Made by a program: the position numbers and the translations under genes
In this document: piece after piece, positions 23,339 through 36,903 of the stretch
Position numbering within the stretch: position 1 is the first letter of the stretch
How the letters are laid out: each line of letters begins with the position of its first letter
NCBI GenBank assembly: GCA_963705555.1
Contig: CAVPJZ010000002.1
Coordinates: 762,292-826,291 of the forward strand
Reading direction: 5' to 3'
Length of the DNA: 64,000 nt
DNA from: an uncultured delta proteobacterium
GTDB lineage: Bacteria; Desulfobacterota; Syntrophia; Syntrophales; Smithellaceae
Notes under the pieces: model-generated
Told to the model about the DNA's origin: nothing
What the model saw: only the letters and a program-made list of their open reading frames with translations
Database searches by the model: none

Positions 23339-24331
23339 ATGCTTTATCTTCACTCCATGGGACATTTCAATCCGGAAAATATTATTACGAACAAATTTTT
23401 AGAAGATTTGGATATCGGCACAAATAACGAATGGATTTTGGAGCGTGTGGGTATCCAAAATCGCCGGACAGTATTACCTTTGGACTATATTAAAAAAACT
23501 AAAAACAGTGATCCACGCGCAGCTTTTGAAGCAAGGCTTTATAAAAATGCACAAATGGGAGCTGCCGCCGCCAGGATGGCGCTTAAAAGAGCTTCACTAA
23601 AGCCTGAAGATATCGGAATGGTTATTGCCGGTTCTTCATCGCCGGATAACGTCTCGCCGGCCGAAGCTTCGGCAATTGCCACAGAACTTGGCATTGAAGT
23701 ACCCAGTCTCGATATGAATTCAGCCTGCTCTACTTTTGGGATGCAAATCAATTTTCTATCCCGAATGAAACCGGAAAGCCTTCCTGATTATATTCTTGTG
23801 GTTGACTCGGAAACGCTGACGAAATGCGTTGACTATACTGACCGTAGTGCAGCGGTGCTCTTTGGCGACGGCAGTGCCGCCGCAATAGTCTCGACGAAAA
23901 TTCCGTCACATGCTGCTTTTATAAATTGTATTTTTGATTCCCGTCCCTCGGCATGGGAAAAAGTAGGAATCACCTGGAATTGGAATTTTCATCAGGAAGG
24001 TAATGCCGTGCAAGGGTTTGCCATTCGGCAGACGACGGAATCCGTTAAAATTTTGCAGGAGGCGTTCACGGCAGAGGCTAAACGCTTCATTTTTATAGGT
24101 CATCAAGCTAATTTGTTAATGCTTAAGGCTGTTAGTGAGAGAAGAGGAATAAACCCCGAGCACCATTGGTATAATGTTGATCAGTTCGGCAATACAGGCT
24201 GCTGCAGTGCGCCCGCTGTTTTAAGTATGCACTGGGATGAGATTAGTACAGGTGACCGTATTGCGATGGCTATTGTCGGCGCTGGATTAAGCTGGACCCA
24301 TATGTTGCTGAAAGTGGAGAATAAACAATGA
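23339..24331 (+). CDS. fabH: 3-oxoacyl-ACP synthase III family (FabH-like)
   Basis: Cys-His-Asn triad: SACS, HQAN, GNT; LFGDG. Confidence 0.85.
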   Translation: MLYLHSMGHFNPENIITNKFLEDLDIGTNNEWILERVGIQNRRTVLPLDYIKKTKNSDPRAAFEARLYKNAQMGAAAARMALKRASLKPEDIGMVIAGSSSPDNVSPAEASAIATELGIEVPSLDMNSACSTFGMQINFLSRMKPESLPDYILVVDSETLTKCVDYTDRSAAVLFGDGSAAAIVSTKIPSHAAFINCIFDSRPSAWEKVGITWNWNFHQEGNAVQGFAIRQTTESVKILQEAFTAEAKRFIFIGHQANLLMLKAVSERRGINPEHHWYNVDQFGNTGCCSAPAVLSMHWDEISTGDRIAMAIVGAGLSWTHMLLKVENKQ

Positions 24332-25059
24332 TCGATAAACCGGTGGCAATTGTTACAGGTGGAGGAACGGGCATAGGGGCGGCTTGTAGCCGCGCCCTGG
24401 CGTCCGAAGGTTTCCGTGTGGGCATCAACTACATACCCGTTATGGAAGAACCGTCGAAAGCGGTTCTTGCCGAAATCAAGGAAGGATTCCTAGTAGAAGC
24501 TGATCTGACAGACCCGGATCAGATAGACAGGATGGTAAGCCAGATCAAGGAAGTGGCGGGCCGCGTGGATGTCCTTGTCAACAGCGCAGGCATTTCGATT
24601 AACAATGATATCAACTCGATGAAAATCGAGGAGTTTGACCGCCAGCGTGAACTTGTACGGGGCGCCTGGTATCTGACCAAGAAAATCCTCCGGCAGTTTA
24701 TGCTCCGGAAGAATACGGGGCGAATTATCAATATCTCCAGCGTTGTTGGGCATACGGGTAATTCAGGACAGATTCCCTACACCATGGAGAAAGCGGCACT
24801 GGATGCTTTTACGAAATCTTTGGCGCAGGAACTTGCCGGACGCAATATCCTGGTTAATTCCGTTGCTCCCGGCTTTATCGACACGACCATGACAAAGGAA
24901 CTTCCCGATCATGTCAAGGAGAGGATCCTGTCAAACATTCCATTGGCCAGGTTGGGCAAGGCCGAGGAAATAGCTGATGTGGTAGCATTCTTAGCAACAA
25001 GGGCCAATTATATTACGGGAACAGTCATTCATGTTAATGGGGGGCTTTATGGTGGCTGA
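24328..25059 (+). CDS. fabG: 3-oxoacyl-ACP reductase
   Basis: TGGGTGIG, NISS, YTMEK, VAPGFI.T. Confidence 0.85.
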   Translation: MIDKPVAIVTGGGTGIGAACSRALASEGFRVGINYIPVMEEPSKAVLAEIKEGFLVEADLTDPDQIDRMVSQIKEVAGRVDVLVNSAGISINNDINSMKIEEFDRQRELVRGAWYLTKKILRQFMLRKNTGRIINISSVVGHTGNSGQIPYTMEKAALDAFTKSLAQELAGRNILVNSVAPGFIDTTMTKELPDHVKERILSNIPLARLGKAEEIADVVAFLATRANYITGTVIHVNGGLYGG

Positions 25060-25519
25060 CGCCTGCGTCATCAAGGAAGTTTTAGCGCTTGTGCCGCAGC
25101 AGGAGCCTTTTCGCTTCATTGATGAAATTATCAGTCTTGATGAGGAAAAAATAATCGGTGCTTATCGCTTTCGTGAAGATGAATTTTTTTATCGCGGTCA
25201 TTTTCCGGGCAGGCCTATTACGCCGGGCGTGATTCTAATTGAAACGATGGCGCAAATTGGAGCTACTGCTTTTGGAATTTACCTCCTTGCATGTCAGAAA
25301 AAAATGCGGCCTGGGACAATGGATATACCGCTTAGCTTGTTTTCATCGGCCGATGGCGTTGAGTTCAATGGAATTGTAGTACCGGGTGAAAGGGTAATCG
25401 TGAACGGCAAAAAAAATTATTTTCGTAAGGGAGTTTTAAAAGTGGATACGACTATGGAAAGAGAAAACGGCGAAATAGTTTGCCTTGGAACGCTGACTGG
25501 AGTGGTAGCGGATAAATGA
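25049..25519 (+). CDS. fabZ: 3-hydroxyacyl-ACP dehydratase (FabZ-like)
   Basis: PQQEPFRFID and GHFPG.P..PGV...E. Confidence 0.85.
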   Translation: MVADACVIKEVLALVPQQEPFRFIDEIISLDEEKIIGAYRFREDEFFYRGHFPGRPITPGVILIETMAQIGATAFGIYLLACQKKMRPGTMDIPLSLFSSADGVEFNGIVVPGERVIVNGKKNYFRKGVLKVDTTMERENGEIVCLGTLTGVVADK

Positions 25520-26796
25520 GGAAACGTGTTGTCATCACGGGAATGGGTGTCGCCGCTCCCAACGCGCATGGATTGGATGATTTTGAACAGGCGCTCAGAG
25601 AAGGCCGTTCTGGTATTCGCTTTATTCCTCGATTGAAAGAATTGAATTTTGGGTGTCAGATTGCGGGAATACCGGAAAATTTTGACGTTATCCGTAAAAG
25701 TTATTTTGATCGTGAAAAGCTTTTATCCTTTAATGATAATATTGGCTTTGCTTCGGTCTCGGCGGTGGATGCCTGGAGGGATGCGGGCTTTAATCTTCAG
25801 GATAGCGATGACGATACGATAGATTGGGACACAGGAGTTATTGCCGGCTCAGGAATCGGTGGCATGGATACGATTGCCAATAGTGTCGTTCCTATGATTA
25901 ATGAAGGTAAAGTTAGACGTTTGGGCAGTCGAGTTGTTGAACAGGTAATGGGTAGCGGCACCAGCGCCCGTATTTCCGGTTTGATCGGTGCCGGCAATCA
26001 GGTGACATCGAATTCTTCAGCGTGCAGTACCGGGAATGAAGCGGTTATTGATGCTCTCTGGAGAATAAGGATGGGATTAGCCAAACGCATGATAGCAGGT
26101 GGTTCCGAAGGTGCCACGCCTTACATCTGGGGAGGCTTTGATGCCATGCGCGTACTTTGCCGTAAATTTAATGATAATCCGGCAGCGGGTTCCCGCCCGA
26201 TGAGTGCTACTGCTTGCGGCTTCGTTCCCGGTTCCGGCGGTGCCATGCTGGTTTTGGAAGAACTGGAAACGGCTCTGGAGAGGGGCGCCAGAATTTACGC
26301 AGAAATAATTGGTGGCTACGTTAATTGCGGTGGTCAGCGGATGGGAGGTACAATGACTGCACCTAATCCTGAAGGGGTAAAGAGATGTATTCGCGGTGCG
26401 GTGGCCGATGCAGGAATTGATCCTGCTGAAGTTGACGCGATTAACGGCCATTTAACGGCGACCTATGCCGATCCTTATGAAGTTAAAAGCTGGGCGGTTG
26501 CTTTGAATCGAACACCTGATAATTTTCCTTACATTCAGGCCACAAAATCATTGATTGGTCATTGTTTAGGTGCCGCCGGCGCCATAGAATGCGTGGCTTC
26601 TGTTTTGCAAATATATAAAGGTTTCCTGCATCCTTCTATTAATTGTGAAGATGTTCATCCGGATATTGCCGAGTATGTCGAAAAAATTCCGAAAAAATGT
26701 TTGGAGTTTCCAAAATTGAAAATTGTCGCCAAAGCTGGTTTTGGCTTTGGTGATGTTAATAGTTGCATCATTTTTAAAAAGTGGGAAGAAAAATAA
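25516..26796 (+). CDS. fabF: Beta-ketoacyl-ACP synthase II family
   Basis: RVVITGMG; Cys-His-His triad in SSACSTG, NGHLTAT, GHCLGAAG; FGFG. Confidence 0.88.
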   Translation: MRKRVVITGMGVAAPNAHGLDDFEQALREGRSGIRFIPRLKELNFGCQIAGIPENFDVIRKSYFDREKLLSFNDNIGFASVSAVDAWRDAGFNLQDSDDDTIDWDTGVIAGSGIGGMDTIANSVVPMINEGKVRRLGSRVVEQVMGSGTSARISGLIGAGNQVTSNSSACSTGNEAVIDALWRIRMGLAKRMIAGGSEGATPYIWGGFDAMRVLCRKFNDNPAAGSRPMSATACGFVPGSGGAMLVLEELETALERGARIYAEIIGGYVNCGGQRMGGTMTAPNPEGVKRCIRGAVADAGIDPAEVDAINGHLTATYADPYEVKSWAVALNRTPDNFPYIQATKSLIGHCLGAAGAIECVASVLQIYKGFLHPSINCEDVHPDIAEYVEKIPKKCLEFPKLKIVAKAGFGFGDVNSCIIFKKWEEK

Positions 26797-26820
26797 TTTA
26801 TTATAAAGGAGAATGTTTTT

Positions 26821-27069
26821 ATGGATGAGAAGAAAATATTTGAAGAGATGGTCAACATTTTGAAGCCTTATACCAAGGATCAGACGCTTTTGGAAAAAGC
26901 GACGATGGACACGCATATTTTAAATGATTTGAAAGTAAATTCCGCCCGTCTGGTAGATGTGATCATTAAGTGTGAAGATGTTTACGGTATCAGTGTTGAT
27001 GACGATGAAGCGGATAAAATCCGCACCATCGGCGATGCCGTAAAAATAATTAAACAAAAACTCGGGTAA
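26821..27069 (+). CDS. Acyl carrier protein
   Basis: Acidic 82 aa protein; DLKVNSARLVD (NS in place of DS at the attachment Ser). Confidence 0.85.
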   Translation: MDEKKIFEEMVNILKPYTKDQTLLEKATMDTHILNDLKVNSARLVDVIIKCEDVYGISVDDDEADKIRTIGDAVKIIKQKLG

Positions 27070-27074
27070 GAAAA

Positions 27075-27899
27075 ATGGATAAAAAATCTAAAGTATTTGT
27101 TGAGGTGCAGAATTTTTTAGGAAGAATTGCGGTACTAATCATCGCGCCCTTTTATTTTTTTATTGCTAAAATTTTATTTTATCGAGTGATGAATTTGAAA
27201 GAAATTCGTCGGCAGTGCGCGAGTGAATTTGCCCGGCACAAGGGACCCTGGATTATTTGCGCCAATCATTTGACAATGATTGACTCGTTTATTCTAGGTT
27301 ATGCCATTTTCAGCTTAGGCCAACATATAACCGACTATAAGAAACTGCCTTGGAATTTACCGGAAAGAAGTAATTTTCAAAGCAATATTATTCTGGCGGT
27401 ATTGTGCTATCTGGCTAAATGCATTCCTATTGATCGCGGCGGGTCCCGGGAAAAAATAAAAAATGCTATGGATAAGTGTGTTTACCTGCTGCGTGACGGT
27501 CATAGTGTCATGATTTTTCCTGAAGGCGGGCGTTCCCGGACCGGAAGAATTAATAAAGAAAGTTTTTCTTACGGTGTGGGTCGTTTCGTCAAAGACGTGG
27601 AAGACTGCAGGGTAATGTGCATTTATCTGCGCGGAAATAAGCAGGAGAATTATAGTGTCATTCCCGCCTGGGGAGATAAATTTTCAGTACATATGGAAGT
27701 GTTTTCGCCGGAACGTATCGAGGGAAGCGGACTGCGCGTACAGCGAGAATATGCCACGCAAATAATTAACCGTCTTGCACAAATGGAGGAGAAGTATTTT
27801 GCCGCACATAGGGAACGATATCGTGGATTTGAGAGAACCTGCGAACGCCGGGAAAAGCAGGGATTCGCGCTTTCTAAAGAAAATCCTCACCGTTGCTGA
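27075..27899 (+). CDS. PlsC-like lysophospholipid acyltransferase
   Basis: NHLTMID (HX4D), PIDR and IFPEGGRS motifs. Confidence 0.85.
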   Translation: MDKKSKVFVEVQNFLGRIAVLIIAPFYFFIAKILFYRVMNLKEIRRQCASEFARHKGPWIICANHLTMIDSFILGYAIFSLGQHITDYKKLPWNLPERSNFQSNIILAVLCYLAKCIPIDRGGSREKIKNAMDKCVYLLRDGHSVMIFPEGGRSRTGRINKESFSYGVGRFVKDVEDCRVMCIYLRGNKQENYSVIPAWGDKFSVHMEVFSPERIEGSGLRVQREYATQIINRLAQMEEKYFAAHRERYRGFERTCERREKQGFALSKENPHRC

Positions 27900-28425
27900 A
27901 ATTGATTTTGTGCAAAACGCGGAAAATCCTGATAGGGCGCTGTGGTCGCTTTGGTCTTGTAAAGAAACTGCCTATAAGGTCATAAAAAAAAAGTGCGTTG
28001 TTGCCGCTTTTTTGCCGCGCCGGTGGACGGTAATTCTCAAGAAATCAGAATCGGCGTGTTTAGGCGGTGAGGTTAAGATTCCGGACGCAGAAGCGGTTTA
28101 TGTTCGTCTCTTTTCTCATTTCCGCTACGTTCATTGTGTGGGAGCAGATCACCCGCCTGATTTGGACAGGTTAGTCTGTAAAGTTGAAGTTCTACCGAAG
28201 AAGGAAAAGGAGAAGAAAATAGATCCATCTTTATTTGCGCGAAAATGCCTTGCCCTAGGTATCGCCGATTTTTTCCGTTTAAATTTAAACGATATCAAAA
28301 TCAACAGAGTACAAGATAAAAGTGAACTTCAGCCGCCGCATGTTTATATTGGCGGCAAAAAATCAAATATTGACATCAGCTTAAGCCACGATGGTCAATT
28401 CGTTGCTTATGCTTTTTTATCCTGA
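27799..28425 (+). CDS. 4'-phosphopantetheinyl transferase
   Basis: IGNDIVD, WSCKETAYK, ISLSHDG; TTG start after a GGAGGA site inside the upstream gene. Confidence 0.85.
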   Translation: MPHIGNDIVDLREPANAGKSRDSRFLKKILTVAEIDFVQNAENPDRALWSLWSCKETAYKVIKKKCVVAAFLPRRWTVILKKSESACLGGEVKIPDAEAVYVRLFSHFRYVHCVGADHPPDLDRLVCKVEVLPKKEKEKKIDPSLFARKCLALGIADFFRLNLNDIKINRVQDKSELQPPHVYIGGKKSNIDISLSHDGQFVAYAFLS

Positions 28426-30898: not shown

Positions 30899-32144
30899 TT
30901 AGAGTTGTGTCCCGAAATTAAGCGCAGTTCTATCCATGCTGAAACCCAGTTTTGTATGAACCAACTCTTTGGGGCTAATCGTGAAGGGATGGAGAACGAG
31001 AAAAGAATTCTCAAGAGTGAATTTAAGCGAAGATGATAAATCCAGGAGGCGTCTTTTATTGGCCATTAAACTGGCTAAAGTAATGATAAAACTCTCCGCA
31101 GCTTCAGTTACGGGCAGAGTTACCGGATAGATTGTTTTTGCCGGAAAATCCCCTGTTGTCAAATTCACTTCAGCCGGCGTCATGGTCAGTTGTTTACACC
31201 AGCGCAAAAACAAAGCGGGGTTAATTTTAAAAGCCGGTGACCAAAAATAAAAAGGCGTGTGTTCCCATGCTTCCGTAGGAACTTTGGGTAAATTAGCCAC
31301 TTTAATTAAATCGGCATAAGTTTCCAGTTGAATACCATCAATTTTTACTTTCATCCGCCAGAAGGGAAGATAAGCAATATCTTCTCTTTGTCTTCCTGCC
31401 AGACGGAAAAATCAACTTTAGTAAAATTTTTGTTGGATGGATTCCATGCAGAATTGCAGTTATGAGCAAAAAACGATTAACGCGTCTTTTTCTCCCGGCA
31501 TATCCGCACCGCAATGCGGACAAAGCATGGGTATGAAATTTACCTGCCATTTCTCAGCCGGGGCGGAGGCGAGAGCCTGTTCAATTTCCTTTTCTTCCAC
31601 TTTTGGGGATCAAATAGGTTTTTTTAAGATTCCATCATAGAGGTAACCGTTGACTGAATAGACTGGAGCGTAAATAGTACCTGACGGTTTCTCCGATAAA
31701 GATTCTCTGCTGATCGGGTTTGCCAACATAAGTTTGGTAGCATTTCAGCAGCGCTTCGCGTGCAGTTTGAGAAGATGCGATAAATTCTCCGGCATCGTTA
31801 TTGCTTCCCACAAATTTTAATTTCAGCGCTTGCGGCCTCAGGCCCAAAGAAAATGGAAGCAAGCGGGAATCGAAAGAAAGAAAATTAGCGTCAAAAAAAT
31901 TATAAGAAATGTTCGCTTCTTTAAGGGTGTAAGAAAGACCCTTAAGGCGCCAATAGGGAATGAAATAAATTTTTTCAGTAATGTCTTTTGCGGGCGGAAT
32001 ATAGTAGCGGAAATGATCTTTTGTCGCCAGATATACCCGTGTGCGGCAGAATTTACACGAAAGAATGCGATCCGCCTCGTCGAGAATTATCGGCGCGCCG
32101 CATTGAGGACATTGTTGTTCAATCTGCCAGTTAGAGCCGTTCAC
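30899..32144 (-). CDS. Zinc-ribbon protein, SPFH partner (frameshifted in this assembly)
   Basis: N-terminal CPQCGA...CKFC; fragments 31635-32144 and 30899-31354 are joinable by frameshifts; overlaps the SPFH gene end. Confidence 0.6.
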
Positions 32145-33252
32145 CGCACTTATTACAATAAATAGATTCCGGTAAATTTTCGAAGCCGCATTTGGAGCAT
32201 TTTTTAGGCGAGGGCTTTACCGTTACCGCCTTGCCGCAATTGACGCAAAATTTGGCGTTGACCGATAAATTTTTTCCGCAATGAGCGCACTTATTGACTA
32301 TTAGAATCTGGTGCCCGCAAGCGGGACAAAAATGGGATTCTTTAGGAATTGCTTGTTTGCAATCCGGACAGGCATAAGTTTCTGCAGTAACTCCTTGTGC
32401 AGCCGCTCCTTTGAAGGCTTCCGCAAGCATTCCGGGCATCATAAATCCCATTCCCAATCCTAATCCCGCGCCCGCTTCCGACTGCGTCTGAGCCGCAGTT
32501 TCCACCGCCATCGCCGCTTTCATTTTCAGAAGTTTGTTGAGATCATCAAAAACACCCAGTCTGCTCTTATCGTCGATTGCTTTTTGCACTTCCGGCGGCG
32601 GGGTAATGGAGTTAATATACAAATCGGTAAGCCCCAGGCCGAATTTACTGAGATCGTTTTGCAGCATTGATTTCAAGCCGTCGGAAAAGTCGTTGTATTT
32701 CCCGGGAAGGTTGAAAATTGTGTCCACGTTTTCCCCCATGTAATCGTTAAAACGCGAAACAATGATCCGGTTGAGATACTCTTCGATTTCTTCGGTGCTG
32801 AAAATTCCCTGTGTTCCGACAAGCGAGTTTATGAGCAGAAGCGGCTGAATAACGCGGATATTAAAAACGCCGAAAGCGCGCAGGCGGATTAATCCTAATT
32901 CCTTATCGCGGAAAGCGACAGGGTCGCGAGTGCCCCATTTTAAATTGGGGAAGACTTTCATGTTGATGAAATAGACTTCCGCGCGCAGGGGGCTTGTCAT
33001 CCCCCACGGTATGGATAAAACTTTCGTTAAAAGAGGAATGTTGGCTGTTTTTAAAGTATGTCGTCCGGGTCCGAAAGCGTCGTAGGCTTTACCGTTATAA
33101 AAAAAGACGGCGCTCTGGCTTTCTCTGACGGTCAGCTGCGCGCCGAATTTTATTTCACCGGAACCTTTGGCCGGAATTCTATGGACTATTTCTTTGCCCG
33201 ATTCATCAAACCACTCGATTACTTCTAAAAAGATGACATTATCAGTTCCCAT
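32131..33252 (-). CDS. SPFH-domain protein with C-terminal double zinc ribbons (YdjI-like)
   Basis: LTVRESQ.AVF, FGPGRHTL.T.NIP, KWGT, LRAFG; repeated CxxC pairs. Confidence 0.85.
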   Translation of the reverse strand: MGTDNVIFLEVIEWFDESGKEIVHRIPAKGSGEIKFGAQLTVRESQSAVFFYNGKAYDAFGPGRHTLKTANIPLLTKVLSIPWGMTSPLRAEVYFINMKVFPNLKWGTRDPVAFRDKELGLIRLRAFGVFNIRVIQPLLLINSLVGTQGIFSTEEIEEYLNRIIVSRFNDYMGENVDTIFNLPGKYNDFSDGLKSMLQNDLSKFGLGLTDLYINSITPPPEVQKAIDDKSRLGVFDDLNKLLKMKAAMAVETAAQTQSEAGAGLGLGMGFMMPGMLAEAFKGAAAQGVTAETYACPDCKQAIPKESHFCPACGHQILIVNKCAHCGKNLSVNAKFCVNCGKAVTVKPSPKKCSKCGFENLPESIYCNKCGERL

Positions 33253-33395
33253 TTATCCTCACTCCCCGGAAGTATTTTAAGTAACGAAATCTAAGTTTTT
33301 AGCTTAGCAATAATAAAAGACACGGACCCAATAGTCAAGGAACAAAGCAATGATTAAAATTGATCTTTTGGGCAGAATATTGTACACAATCCCCC

Positions 33396-34822
33396 ATGAA
33401 AAAGACCAATTCCGCCGGGCACAATATTTATAAAGGGATGGCTCTTATCGCCGACCCGATTCATCAATACGCACTTTTTACAGTGCCGGAAGATAATGCC
33501 CCTCAAGAAACTACGGAAAAAGACCTAATTGATTCTCCCTGGATGCAGAGATTAAGAAGGATTTATCAGCTGCAAAGCGCGCGCTGGGTTTATCCGGCGG
33601 CGGAACATTCCCGCTTTCAGCATTCTCTCGGCACAATGCACGTTGCCGGAGAATTTGCCAAAAGCATTTATCCGAGTTTGTCCGATATTTGTAAAGATGT
33701 ACCCTCCTGTAATTACGTGGAAGAACTACTGCGCCTCGCCGGTCTTTTACATGATGTCGGGCACGGTCCCTACGGTCATTTTTTTGACGATAATTATTTG
33801 AGTGATCTGGGGCTTGACGCATGAAATAATCGGGCAGAGTATCATTGTCGAAAAACTCGGAGTGGATATTTCCCGCATCAAACGAAGTCCTTCCGGAGTA
33901 TTTGCGCGCGGCGAAGCTTTGAATCCGCCCCAGGTGGCCTATTTAATTAAGATGCCCGAAGCCAGGGAAAATACCCGGCAGCCGCGCTGGTTGCAGTTGT
34001 TGCGGCAGTTGTTTTCCGGCGTTTATACGGTAGATAATCTCGATTATGTTCAGCGCGACGCATACATGACCGGATTTTCGCTGGATATGGTGGATATTCC
34101 CCGCCTGCGCTATTATACTTTTTTTACCAAAGACGGTCTTACCCTGCATCAATCGGGCATCTCGGCGTTGGGGCGTTTTCTCAACGCCCGTCTGAATTTA
34201 TACACTAACGTTTATTTTCACCGCACCACGCGCGCCCTGGATTTGCATTTGCAGGAAATCTTTCACGATACCATGGAGATAATTTTCCCGTATAATCCGG
34301 TCGAAAAATTTGGACGCTTATCTGCATTGTGATGAATGGTTTTTATTCAACGAAGTGCAAAGCTGGCTTACACATAATGATCAAAGGAAAAGAAAACTGG
34401 CCGATGAGTGGAAAAAACTGCATGCGCGAGAAGTTAAGTGGAAAATGTCTTTTTCCACGGAAATTTCCATTGCTCAAATTCATCGCGGCACCGGATTTGT
34501 TCGCGCCGTGGATTATGAGGCAAAAATAAAAGAACGTCTCCCCAAAAAGTTAAAAGAAATTTCCTTTAAAGTGGATTTGGCCACGCAGGACCCTCGTCCG
34601 CTCAATCCTATGGCCGAACCCGGCAAAAGAATAAATATTTTTAATCCGGTTACGGAAATGACATCACCGGAACCGCTTTTGGAAATTTACCGTTTTATTC
34701 CCGCGCGGGTCATGCACTTCCGGGTGTTTTCACTGAACCACGATTATGATGAAGAACTATCCAGAGCCGCGGAAAATGTTCTGAATACTGTCGAATCATC
34801 ATCAATGCCGACTAATGTTTGA
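33396..34822 (+). CDS. HD-domain phosphohydrolase, SAMHD1/COG1078-like (two frameshifts)
   Basis: QRLRRIYQL, HSRFQHSLG, LLHDVGHGP..H, DNLDY..RD, VYFH. Confidence 0.85.
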
Positions 34823-36903
34823 TATGCTGGAAAATTCCGAAACCACAGATATAACTCTTTTTGTCCGCACTTCCGGGGAGGAAATAGCTCCCTGGAACCG
34901 TCAGCGCATTGTTGATGCCCTGGTGCGCGAAGCGGATATTGATTATCAGTTGGCGGCGGAAATATCGAAAGAAGTGGAAAAACAGATTGTCTCTTCGGGT
35001 ATCGGCGTGCTCACGACGGCGCTTATCCGCGAACTGGTTAATGCGCGACTTATTGAAAGGGGACTGGAGAAAGAACGGAGACTGCACGGCCGTTTGGGAT
35101 TTCCTCTCTATGACGTCCGGCAGTTGATTTTACACCAAAATAAAGAAAGTGCCAATACTCCTCATTCTCCCGAAGGCACGAATCTGATTTTTGCCGAAGG
35201 AATTAAAAGAGAATTTTCTCTTTACGATGTTTTTTCCGCCGATATCGGCGATGCGCATGCCGCAGGTGACATTCACATTCACGGGTTAGGGTATGTTGAC
35301 CGTCCTTACAGCTGTTGTCAATCTCTGGAATATCTCAAAATTAACGGCTTGAATTTGCCGCAGGCAGTGAATTCCGCCAAGCCCGCAAAATATGCCGAAG
35401 TGCTTCTAGCGCACATGGTGCGTTTCAGCGCCATTCTGCAGGGACATTTTACCGGTACAATCGGCTGGGATGCGCTCAACATTTCCTTTGCTCCTTATCT
35501 GGGCTCTATGACCGATAAAGAAGTAAAACAGTTCGCGCAAATGCTTGTTTATGAATTCTCACAGCTTTCCGCCACGCGCGGGGGGCAGGCTTTATATACC
35601 GATATGCACATCTATTACGAAATACCGCCGCATTGGGCGAGCTCTTCCCGCTATCGGGCCGGAAGGCAAACCCACCGGTAAAACTTATGGTGAATACGCC
35701 GGAGACGCTCAGCGCCTGGCTTTGGCCATCTTGGAAGTATTTAAAAAAGGCGATGCCACCGGAAAACCGTTCATCCTGCCCCGGCCGCTTCTGCATATAA
35801 CTGAAGCTTTTTGGAAGACTAAAGGTGCTGAGGAATATCTTGAACATGCCTGTGAAGTGGCCGGGCTCAAGGGCAATACCTGCTTTATTTTCGACAGAGA
35901 TGAAAATGCGTTATCTTTTGCCTGTTGTAAGACCGGTTATAAAGGTAATGGTGATTACGAACAAGAATCGAAAAAACCATGGCTGATGCGCTGTGCTGCC
36001 ATTCAAAGCGTGACTTTGAATTTACCGCGACTCGCCTACAAAGCCGCCGGCGATGAAAAAAGATTATTTGCCCTGCTTACTGAATTTACGGCAACAGCGG
36101 TAAAGGCGCACATTCAGAAAAAAGATTTTCTGGAAAAACTTCTTTCTTACGCCGATAAGGGTCCTTTGGCCGTGCTGGCCATGAACCATGACGGGTTTCC
36201 GTTTTTGAGAATGAACCGGGCTTATTATATTATCGGTCTTGTCGGAATAAATGAACTAGTGCAAATTCATATAGGGAGCCAACTGCACGAATCACCGGAA
36301 GCTCTGGAATTTGGTTTGAAAGTGGTAGACTACCTTAAGCGTGAAGCCGAGCTCCTGAGTGAAAAGTTGGGAATAAAATTTGTATTGGAGCAGTCACCGG
36401 CGGAAACTACCGCTTACCGGTTCGCGAGGCTCGATTTAAAATACTTTTCTCCGGCCGCTGGACGCTATGTGAAAGGCGATATTGCCGAAGGTGCTATTTA
36501 TTATACAAACTCAACGCACTTGAATGTTTCCGCGGATGTGCCGCCTCTGCAAAGAGTGATTCAGGAAGGTCTTTTTCATAAATATCTGGAAGGGGAGCAT
36601 ATCACGCATTTACAGTTGGGTGGCTCAAATCCGGGCAAAAAAGAATTAAGTAAGTTTATTCGAGAAGTGTTTTACAATTCCGCCAACCGCCAGATTGATT
36701 TTTCTCCTGAATTTACATTCTGTCTTTCCTGCGGCAAAACGGCTTCCGGCTTGAGTGAAACTTGTGTTTACTGCGGCTCAAATGAAGTCGAAGGCATCGC
36801 GCGCCTCACCAAATATTTCAGCAAAATTTCGGGCTGGAACAAGGGTAAGTTTGCCGAGCTTAAGAATAGAAGAGTGGACAAGAACTTTAAGGTAGACGGC
36901 TGA
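34815..36903 (+). CDS. nrdD: Class III ribonucleotide reductase (NrdD) homologue with ATP cone, lacking the radical Gly (one frameshift near 35640)
   Basis: N-terminal ATP cone, EQSPAE, YYTNS, CLSC..CVYC zinc site, WNKGK..E...R C-terminus; the RxxGY motif reads RLTKY. Confidence 0.85.

Follow-up and report, generated by a model that had tools for sequence, protein, structure and literature searches.

The two genes described here lie head to tail in a 64,000-nucleotide stretch of DNA (the window) from an uncultured bacterium whose closest relatives are Smithellaceae (Syntrophales). The upstream gene encodes an HD-domain protein predicted to hydrolyze deoxynucleoside triphosphates (dNTPs), and the downstream gene encodes a homologue of the class III ribonucleotide reductase (RNR) NrdD. 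This homologue, here called pseudo-NrdD, is very probably a full-length pseudo-enzyme, catalytically dead yet kept under purifying selection throughout the order. The following features were identified.

33350..33395, plus strand: candidate promoter/operator, conserved ATGATT..TTGAT..ATATT(G/A)TA..ATG directly upstream of the HD start codon, seen in 29 Smithellaceae loci
33396..34822, plus strand: HD gene, SAMHD1/EF1143-type HD-domain protein, predicted dNTP triphosphohydrolase (dNTPase), 473-474 aa in relatives; in three frames here (insertions near 33806 and 34302)
34815..36903, plus strand: pseudo-nrdD, full-length class III RNR homologue without radical chemistry; Pfam NRDD; insertion near 35640
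34860..35066, plus strand: ATP cone, retained, of the VRTS type found in the active parent enzymes (PF03477, residues 16-84)
35139..35156, plus strand: NxN flap (NKESAN), first Asn replaced, second Asn kept
35274..35318, plus strand: HIHG and PYSCC, an HxHD motif without its Asp but with both His (HIHG, 35274-35285), and Ser for the active-site Cys of the parent PYC
35529..35597, plus strand: specificity-site helix and loop 2 (Q242, Q250, R255, Q258, Y261), retained
35914..35934, plus strand: degenerate finger loop, SFACCKT against the parent SECCRL; Cys pair present here, deleted or replaced in many relatives
36388..36408, plus strand: EQSPAET phosphate-binding loop, retained; A529 and E530 in 95 of 95 dead copies
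36721..36849, plus strand: zinc ribbon and glycyl-radical domain, Lys (36811-36813) for Gly; Tyr and WNKGK kept

In the last of these, the CxxC...CxxC zinc site occupies 36721-36774, RLTKY 36802-36816 with the Lys codon AAA, and WNKGK 36835-36849. The HD stop codon TGA (34820-34822) overlaps the ATG of pseudo-nrdD at 34815; translation may really begin at another in-frame ATG, at 34824, in which case the genes would abut and not overlap. Pfam recognized HD, HD_assoc_2, ATP-cone (26.1 bits, cut-off 25.8), and NRDD in the window, the HD_assoc_2 match lying slightly below its cut-off on the frameshifted HD piece. A sequence-only reading of the window had reported the overlap, the ATP cone, the zinc site, WNKGK, RLTKY, and HIHG, and all are confirmed. 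Its remark that no nrdG activase gene adjoins also holds, as the next gene is an rpsT-like open reading frame (ORF).

The insertion near 35640 had been noticed in that reading, and the two in the HD gene had been missed; each is a single base. All three are missing from three relatives (~91-95% identity) and from short-read contigs, and the relatives have intact frames (HD protein, 472-481 aa; pseudo-NrdD, ~675-695 aa), so the window's frameshifts are probably assembly errors. The host genome assembly is 74% complete, and its canonical nrdD-nrdG genes are also broken by several frameshifts.

The glycyl-radical motif was read in 33 related genome-contig loci as RLTKY (n = 31) or RLTRY (n = 1), with one contig ending before the motif. 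Among the best 120 protein homologues it could be read in 109, as RLTKY (n = 103), RLTRY (n = 5), or RLMKY (n = 1), and Gly was found in none. These counts rule out a sequencing error at the Lys codon, and by them Lys at the glycyl-radical position is a family trait that is not unique to the host genome. The loss extends beyond the Gly and includes sites that the sequence-only reading had overlooked. The PYS of the window aligns to the PYC of Thermotoga maritima NrdD, whose Cys (C125; C79 in T4 and the Cys of YC in the parent enzymes) is the active-site Cys. In the finger motif the window keeps CC and lacks the Arg of (S)CCR.

The closest active enzymes are NrdDs with SECCRL and RITGY motifs distributed across the same phylum (52-58% identity). 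Outside Syntrophales, 65 of 69 loci are canonical at every covered site (HxHD, PYC, SECCRL, RITGY; SQCCRL in two), and the four exceptions all come from a single family, f41. Within Syntrophales, 93 distinct copies were compared, and the full catalytic set is present in none. As the active class was defined by these same motifs, only the taxonomic split is informative. Together with two f41 copies, the Syntrophales copies make up 95 dead sequences, of which nine retain the HxHD Asp, 15 the active-site Cys, 34 the finger Cys column, and 24 the Gly; the finger loop is deleted in 15, and the second His of HxHD is kept in all. At the Gly position these 95 copies have K (39), G (24), Q (18), R (9), N (2), L, H, or a gap (one each). 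Lys itself is not special on this evidence, since Gln, Arg, Asn, His, Leu, and even Gly occupy the position in other dead copies. Gly is missing from all 41 Smithellaceae-type copies, and early-branching families have kept it while losing other catalytic parts. Gly loss falls in one supported subclade of an unrooted FastTree phylogeny; this and a quick tree, also unrooted, may be affected by long-branch attraction, and no number of inactivation events is claimed.

Three loci deserve separate mention. A near-intact copy in genome G373 (L217:4187-6268; PYC, SECCRL, MITGY, HLHN), for which nrdG was not found, possibly represents the earliest stage of decay. In f41, which belongs to another order and is the sole dead lineage found elsewhere in the phylum, a Gly-less RITNY NrdD is the only NRDD match (L165:5180-7288, L168:215-2314), and an HD orthologue is present and unlinked.

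The genetic surroundings changed along with the catalytic sites. Of 39 canonical loci, 34 have nrdG in the flanking sequence retrieved; of 41 Syntrophales loci, none does. Upstream NrdR boxes, searched for by consensus, occurred at 35/56 active copies, 1/31 other dead copies, and 0/54 HD-pseudo-nrdD units, including those with the type of element found at 33350..33395. Judging from these upstream regions, pseudo-nrdD has left the NrdR regulon. In the host genome a second, distant nrdD (RVVGY, ~25-29% identity) is followed by a NrdG2 match (C1:666956-667529), and two NrdR-box-like sites, by the same consensus, lie upstream of this canonical nrdD-nrdG pair (G000:C1 ~664750-667530; L002, L003, L089). 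The single NrdG2 of the host genome thus adjoins the canonical nrdD and not pseudo-nrdD. The databases annotate proteins of the pseudo-NrdD type as active reductases, and recognizing the dead copies corrects annotations of syntroph metabolism.

The Gly-less copies could still be radical enzymes, with the radical on a lysyl (aminoacyl) backbone position or on a glycyl domain provided in trans. The accessible part of a 2024 survey (PMC11528403) describes Ala, Ser, and Thr backbone radicals in glycyl-radical-enzyme homologues, the window copy has two finger-loop Cys, and early-branching copies keep the Gly. The aminoacyl radical enzymes described there keep the catalytic Cys and an adjacent activase, however, and the class III RNRs detected were Gly-encoding ones only. 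Pseudo-NrdD resembles them in carrying a non-Gly residue in a barrel of the same superfamily, but its replacement varies (Lys/Arg/Gln), its active-site Cys is mostly Ser, its finger-loop Cys are often deleted, and the activase is gone, some carriers having no NrdG that could be found. Two short C-terminal look-alikes also lack Gly where read. Continued radical chemistry is therefore barely credible, and by its motifs and gene context pseudo-NrdD is neither an active class III RNR nor an aminoacyl radical enzyme.

These look-alikes (L067:4121-4237 in G017 and L068:3954-4061 in G020) were considered as autonomous glycyl domains and rejected. They are orphan 3' fragments comprising the last 35-40 codons of pseudo-nrdD at unrelated sites, and the one that could be read carries RLTKY.

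Selection on pseudo-NrdD was assessed by the ratio of nonsynonymous to synonymous substitutions (dN/dS; pairwise NG86, pairs with dS 0.1-1.5, pairs not independent). The ratio is 0.105 for 39 Smithellaceae pseudo-nrdD genes; their HD genes have 0.117, and 25 active parents 0.047. Within pseudo-nrdD, regional dN over dS is 0.072 in the cone, 0.031 in the linker and flap, 0.051 in the specificity region, 0.044 in loop 2, and 0.042 in the C-terminal tail, and the finger loop evolves fastest (0.257). A relic that decays slowly and has no function would fit the ratio of about twice that of the active parent, the values of 0.2-0.27 in some deep pairs, and the absence of pseudo-NrdD from f113 and two g5 genomes. 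Against this, the protein is full length order-wide (47-92% identity) and present in 138 of 151 genomes, its dN/dS is far below 1 and equal to that of the HD gene, and its losses are concentrated at catalytic sites. The relic explanation is highly improbable and largely refuted, and retention of a full-length pseudo-enzyme, as the sequence-only reading proposed, stands.

The sites that remain constrained are those expected to hold nucleotides. In the 95 dead copies H156, A529, and E530 are invariant and Y667 is present in 93; the pocket residues H156, E530, Y667, N114, and Y165 as a group are nearly invariant. Q242, Q250, and Q258 are likewise invariant, and R255 nearly so. The available text on T. 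maritima NrdD assigns effector or substrate binding to Q210, Q218, R221, Q224, Y227, both His of HxHD, and a helix start (PMC4493059), and that on Prevotella copri NrdD describes an NxN flap, with roles for both Asn, and a Tyr-Glu link (PMC11226230). By spacing and motif, Q242, Q250, R255, Q258, and Y261 would correspond to the five T. maritima residues in that order, and by spacing H154, H156, E530, N114, and Y667 would correspond to known nucleotide-site residues of the two enzymes.

Structure prediction agrees with a class III fold. A model of the relative L006 (pLDDT 82.7, pTM 0.80) had class III RNRs as its best Foldseek matches (TM ~0.7), with low confidence at the cone start and the finger loop (pLDDT <50 at 366-371); single-sequence prediction was uninformative (pLDDT 38). 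The Pfam NRDD match, the model, and Foldseek together indicate the ten-stranded barrel with C-terminal zinc ribbon and glycyl-radical domain. Compared with class III NrdDs that have an ATP cone (P. copri 8P2S/8P23, Streptococcus thermophilus 9D3X, T. maritima 4COJ, T4 1H79), pseudo-NrdD shares the fold, the cone, the specificity helix and loop 2, the phosphate loop, the zinc ribbon, the C-terminal Tyr, and WNKGK. It differs in lacking the radical Gly, active-site Cys, HxHD Asp, nrdG, and NrdR box, in its unconstrained finger loop, and in having an HD gene upstream. Pseudo-NrdD probably retains a nucleotide-binding function. The copies form a graded series from near-intact to fully stripped, in effect a natural dissection of RNR allostery from catalysis.

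The HD protein matched 2HEK, 2O6I, 2Q14, 9MR6, and SAMHD1 in the PDB (E 1e-27 to 1e-12), and its active site (H76, H119, D120, D216, R73, H128, H142-E143, Y217) is invariant in 56 of 56 sequences. It shares the metal site and the His-Glu pair of SAMHD1/EF1143-type enzymes and is predicted to be a dNTP triphosphohydrolase of that type. Across 151 Syntrophales genomes, a pseudo-NrdD-type copy was found in 138, an HD orthologue in 127, and both in 124; motifs were read in only part of the 138 copies, and every copy read is dead. The HD gene lies directly upstream of pseudo-nrdD in 97 of the 124 genomes, within 100 bp in 77, which bears out the expectation of a conserved adjacency; the expected canonical nrdD/nrdG elsewhere is also confirmed. 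It is directly upstream in 30 of the 33 related loci, the other three contigs ending before it, and in Smithellaceae the two genes remain neighbors even where the genes around them differ. Two genome bins contain two pseudo-NrdD-type copies each (G440, C211 and C177; G039, C205 and C8), through duplication or bin contamination.

Pseudo-NrdD may thus be a nucleotide sensor that tunes the predicted dNTPase encoded just upstream, a proposal we favor tentatively. Pseudo-NrdD would still dimerize, and would bind ATP or dATP in its cone and dNTPs at the specificity site; the vacated active site might in addition accommodate an NTP. It would change shape with the bound nucleotide as the parent reductase did. 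This shape change could report pool size to the co-expressed HD enzyme, such that high dATP or dNTP levels turn up hydrolysis. That the HD enzyme is its main target is, in our judgment, possible but short of probable. Historically, Syntrophales may have gained a second nrdD-nrdG, after which the ancestral copy would have lost its activase and then decayed stepwise at catalytic sites only. More broadly, and more doubtfully, the allosteric machinery of RNR may have been freed from catalysis to become a dedicated regulatory subunit of a SAMHD1-type dNTPase, as one branch of a widespread class of pseudo-NrdD sensors whose partners differ (HD here, NrdR elsewhere). If so, a sensor that evolved for dNTP synthesis controls dNTP destruction. 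A direct test of an RNR-derived sensor regulating a bacterial SAMHD1-like dNTPase becomes possible, and both proteins, having no oxygen-sensitive radical centers, should be easy to express and assay.

Several observations weigh against a regulatory link to the HD enzyme. The genes are not adjacent in 27 of the 124 genomes with both, lying within 10 kb of each other in eight and far apart or on other contigs in 19, many of these being fragmented drafts. Pseudo-NrdD occurs without HD in all seven f114 genomes (three of them single-contig) and in G367, G381, G373, G400, and G337; G026 and G033 are also listed as such and are contig-end cases. Its dN/dS in the HD-less f114 genomes is unchanged at 0.10-0.16. 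In several HD-less genomes pseudo-nrdD is immediately preceded by the SPFH gene whose Smithella counterpart is divergent from HD, an arrangement that reads as a clean deletion of HD. The HD gene in turn is present without pseudo-NrdD in G018, G023, and G378 and in lineages with an active, unlinked NrdD. Adjacency may also partly be inherited gene order, because the pair sits in an old HD-pseudo-nrdD-gmhA-grpE-dnaK block. Finally, no HD-NrdD fusion was found, a search among longer proteins giving four matches and none with an NRDD domain, which is weak evidence. On this distribution the link is not obligatory, because pseudo-NrdD is kept under selection in HD-less f114 and HD is kept without pseudo-NrdD in three genomes. 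The suggestion that pseudo-NrdD is an allosteric partner of the HD enzyme therefore stands as far as conserved adjacency goes and does not stand as an obligatory partnership.

A distant homologue of HD (33%) occurs in one f114 genome. A candidate HD-NrdD fusion in G040, a 1,203-codon open frame, was rejected, since it results from reading through GC-rich HD DNA in the wrong frame.

Pseudo-NrdD may instead act alone, as a nucleotide buffer or through some novel non-radical activity of the retained NTP pocket (His-x-His, Glu, Tyr), its HD neighbor reflecting shared regulation or inherited order. Selection on pseudo-NrdD does not depend on whether HD or an active class III RNR is present, the pocket is conserved as described above, and there are many independent-looking dead NrdDs (24 double-cone clusters and 15 full-length among the best 150 representatives). 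On the other side, tight coupling to HD has outlasted the rearrangement of the flanks, constraint on the HxHD Asp and on the first Asn of the flap is relaxed, and erosion of the pocket motifs is seen in the double-cone group; the latter two argue against conserved catalysis. A stand-alone role seems somewhat unlikely.

The wider set of dead NrdDs was obtained by a profile search of 50% representatives, in which the best 150 comprised 79 with RxxG, 24 double-cone proteins without a radical domain, and 15 full-length dead proteins, the rest being fragments or unclassified. One dead representative belongs to a cluster named Synergistaceae. The double-cone group (P0165, P0196, P0210, and 21 more; ~750-770 aa) carries a pair of ATP cones and lacks both the zinc ribbon and the radical domain. 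A fusion to NrdR was considered for these proteins and ruled out, as the N-terminus is a second ATP cone. Gene context was readable in only two double-cone loci. In one (L259:1958-4892), from another lineage and more decayed, the gene lies directly behind nrdR and not HD, a further point against HD as the general partner; in the other, nrdR was not seen.

This neighborhood raises the possibility that pseudo-NrdD passes nucleotide status to RNR expression or activity, via NrdR or a working class II or III RNR. Of the 151 genomes of the order, 143 have NrdR, among them the genomes that lack HD or an active NrdD, which makes it the one candidate partner that is almost always available; in the 74%-complete host genome it was not found. 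As NrdR is also present where pseudo-NrdD is missing (G018, G023, G378, f113), its co-occurrence carries little weight; none of the Syntrophales pseudo-NrdD loci retrieved contained nrdR, and the HD-pseudo-nrdD operon has no NrdR box. Both are ATP-cone proteins without catalysis, but pseudo-NrdD differs from the NrdR repressor (zinc ribbon and ATP cone) in having no recognizable DNA-binding part, in keeping the whole barrel, and in coexisting with a normal NrdR. The presence of NrdR in the order also ruled out pseudo-NrdD as its substitute.

The genomes checked each have a separate working RNR, of class III or class II. In three drafts (G019, G024, G063) pseudo-NrdD is the sole NRDD match and no parent-type NrdG was found, nor was NrdG2 in G019 and G024; in three more drafts (G333, G369, G451) it is kept where no other NrdD or NrdG was found. 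All six have a class I/II catalytic subunit. A heterodimer with NrdD cannot be the whole story, because genomes with only class II RNR keep pseudo-NrdD. The proposal in the sequence-only reading that it modulates the true NrdD consequently fails as a sole role. A link to NrdR or to another RNR is unlikely in our view, less probable than a stand-alone function, and yet both are to be taken seriously as competitors of regulation of the HD enzyme.

An anti-phage function had also been raised, in which the pair would form a dNTP-depletion defense, with pseudo-NrdD sensing phage-driven dNTP changes. dNTPase effectors with regulatory partners are known: in the Clover system CloA-CloB, as far as the consulted part of PMC12265719 describes it, a dNTPase encoded in defense islands is controlled by a partner gene, whose product is a nucleotidyltransferase making a small-molecule signal. 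The HD-pseudo-nrdD pair, however, is near-universal, vertically inherited, mostly single-copy, and surrounded by housekeeping genes (gmhA-grpE-dnaK, rpsT), its distribution being that of a core locus and not patchy in defense islands. The pair is under strong purifying selection. Among defense models, PADLOC gave a weak, partial 23.6-bit match for HD and none for pseudo-NrdD, and NCBIfam gave 19 bits against a cut-off of 400 on the N-terminal HD piece. A defensive role is unsupported and very unlikely. Housekeeping control of the dNTP pool has a parallel in Caulobacter FssC (PMC12186491, in the portion available).

The sequence-only interpretation as a whole is partly supported, and its elements have precedents. 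Betaherpesvirus R1 homologues UL45 and M45 are inactive RNRs (available parts of PMC5469499 and PMC11772975), and as in pseudo-NrdD the RNR scaffold has outlived catalysis and been reused. These are viral class I proteins that target host immune signaling, whereas pseudo-NrdD is a class III protein encoded by a bacterial core gene with its nucleotide-site residues kept. Similarly, the Clover partner is a nucleotidyltransferase, and an RNR-derived partner of a dNTPase is not described in the parts of the literature examined. The literature searched, which excluded most subscription journals and all supplements, contained no description of a dead-NrdD system, and the accessible portions of PMC9531940 and PMC2795772 hold nothing on dead NrdDs. 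Dead RNR scaffolds and partner-regulated dNTPases are already known, and an order-wide pseudo-RNR under selection appears to be new.

The candidate promoter/operator extends up to the HD start codon, and a ribosome-binding site is not apparent, which may point to a leaderless transcript with an operator; a generic sigma-70 promoter and terminator scan of the locus gave matches at chance level only. A minus-strand gene (32131-33252), oriented away from HD in many Smithella loci, encodes an SPFH/band-7 protein with a double zinc ribbon. Further upstream, a fatty-acid-synthesis-like cluster (23339-28425) comprises FabH-, FabG-, FabZ-, and FabF-like proteins, an acyl carrier protein, an acyltransferase, and a phosphopantetheinyl transferase, named by ORF reading alone.

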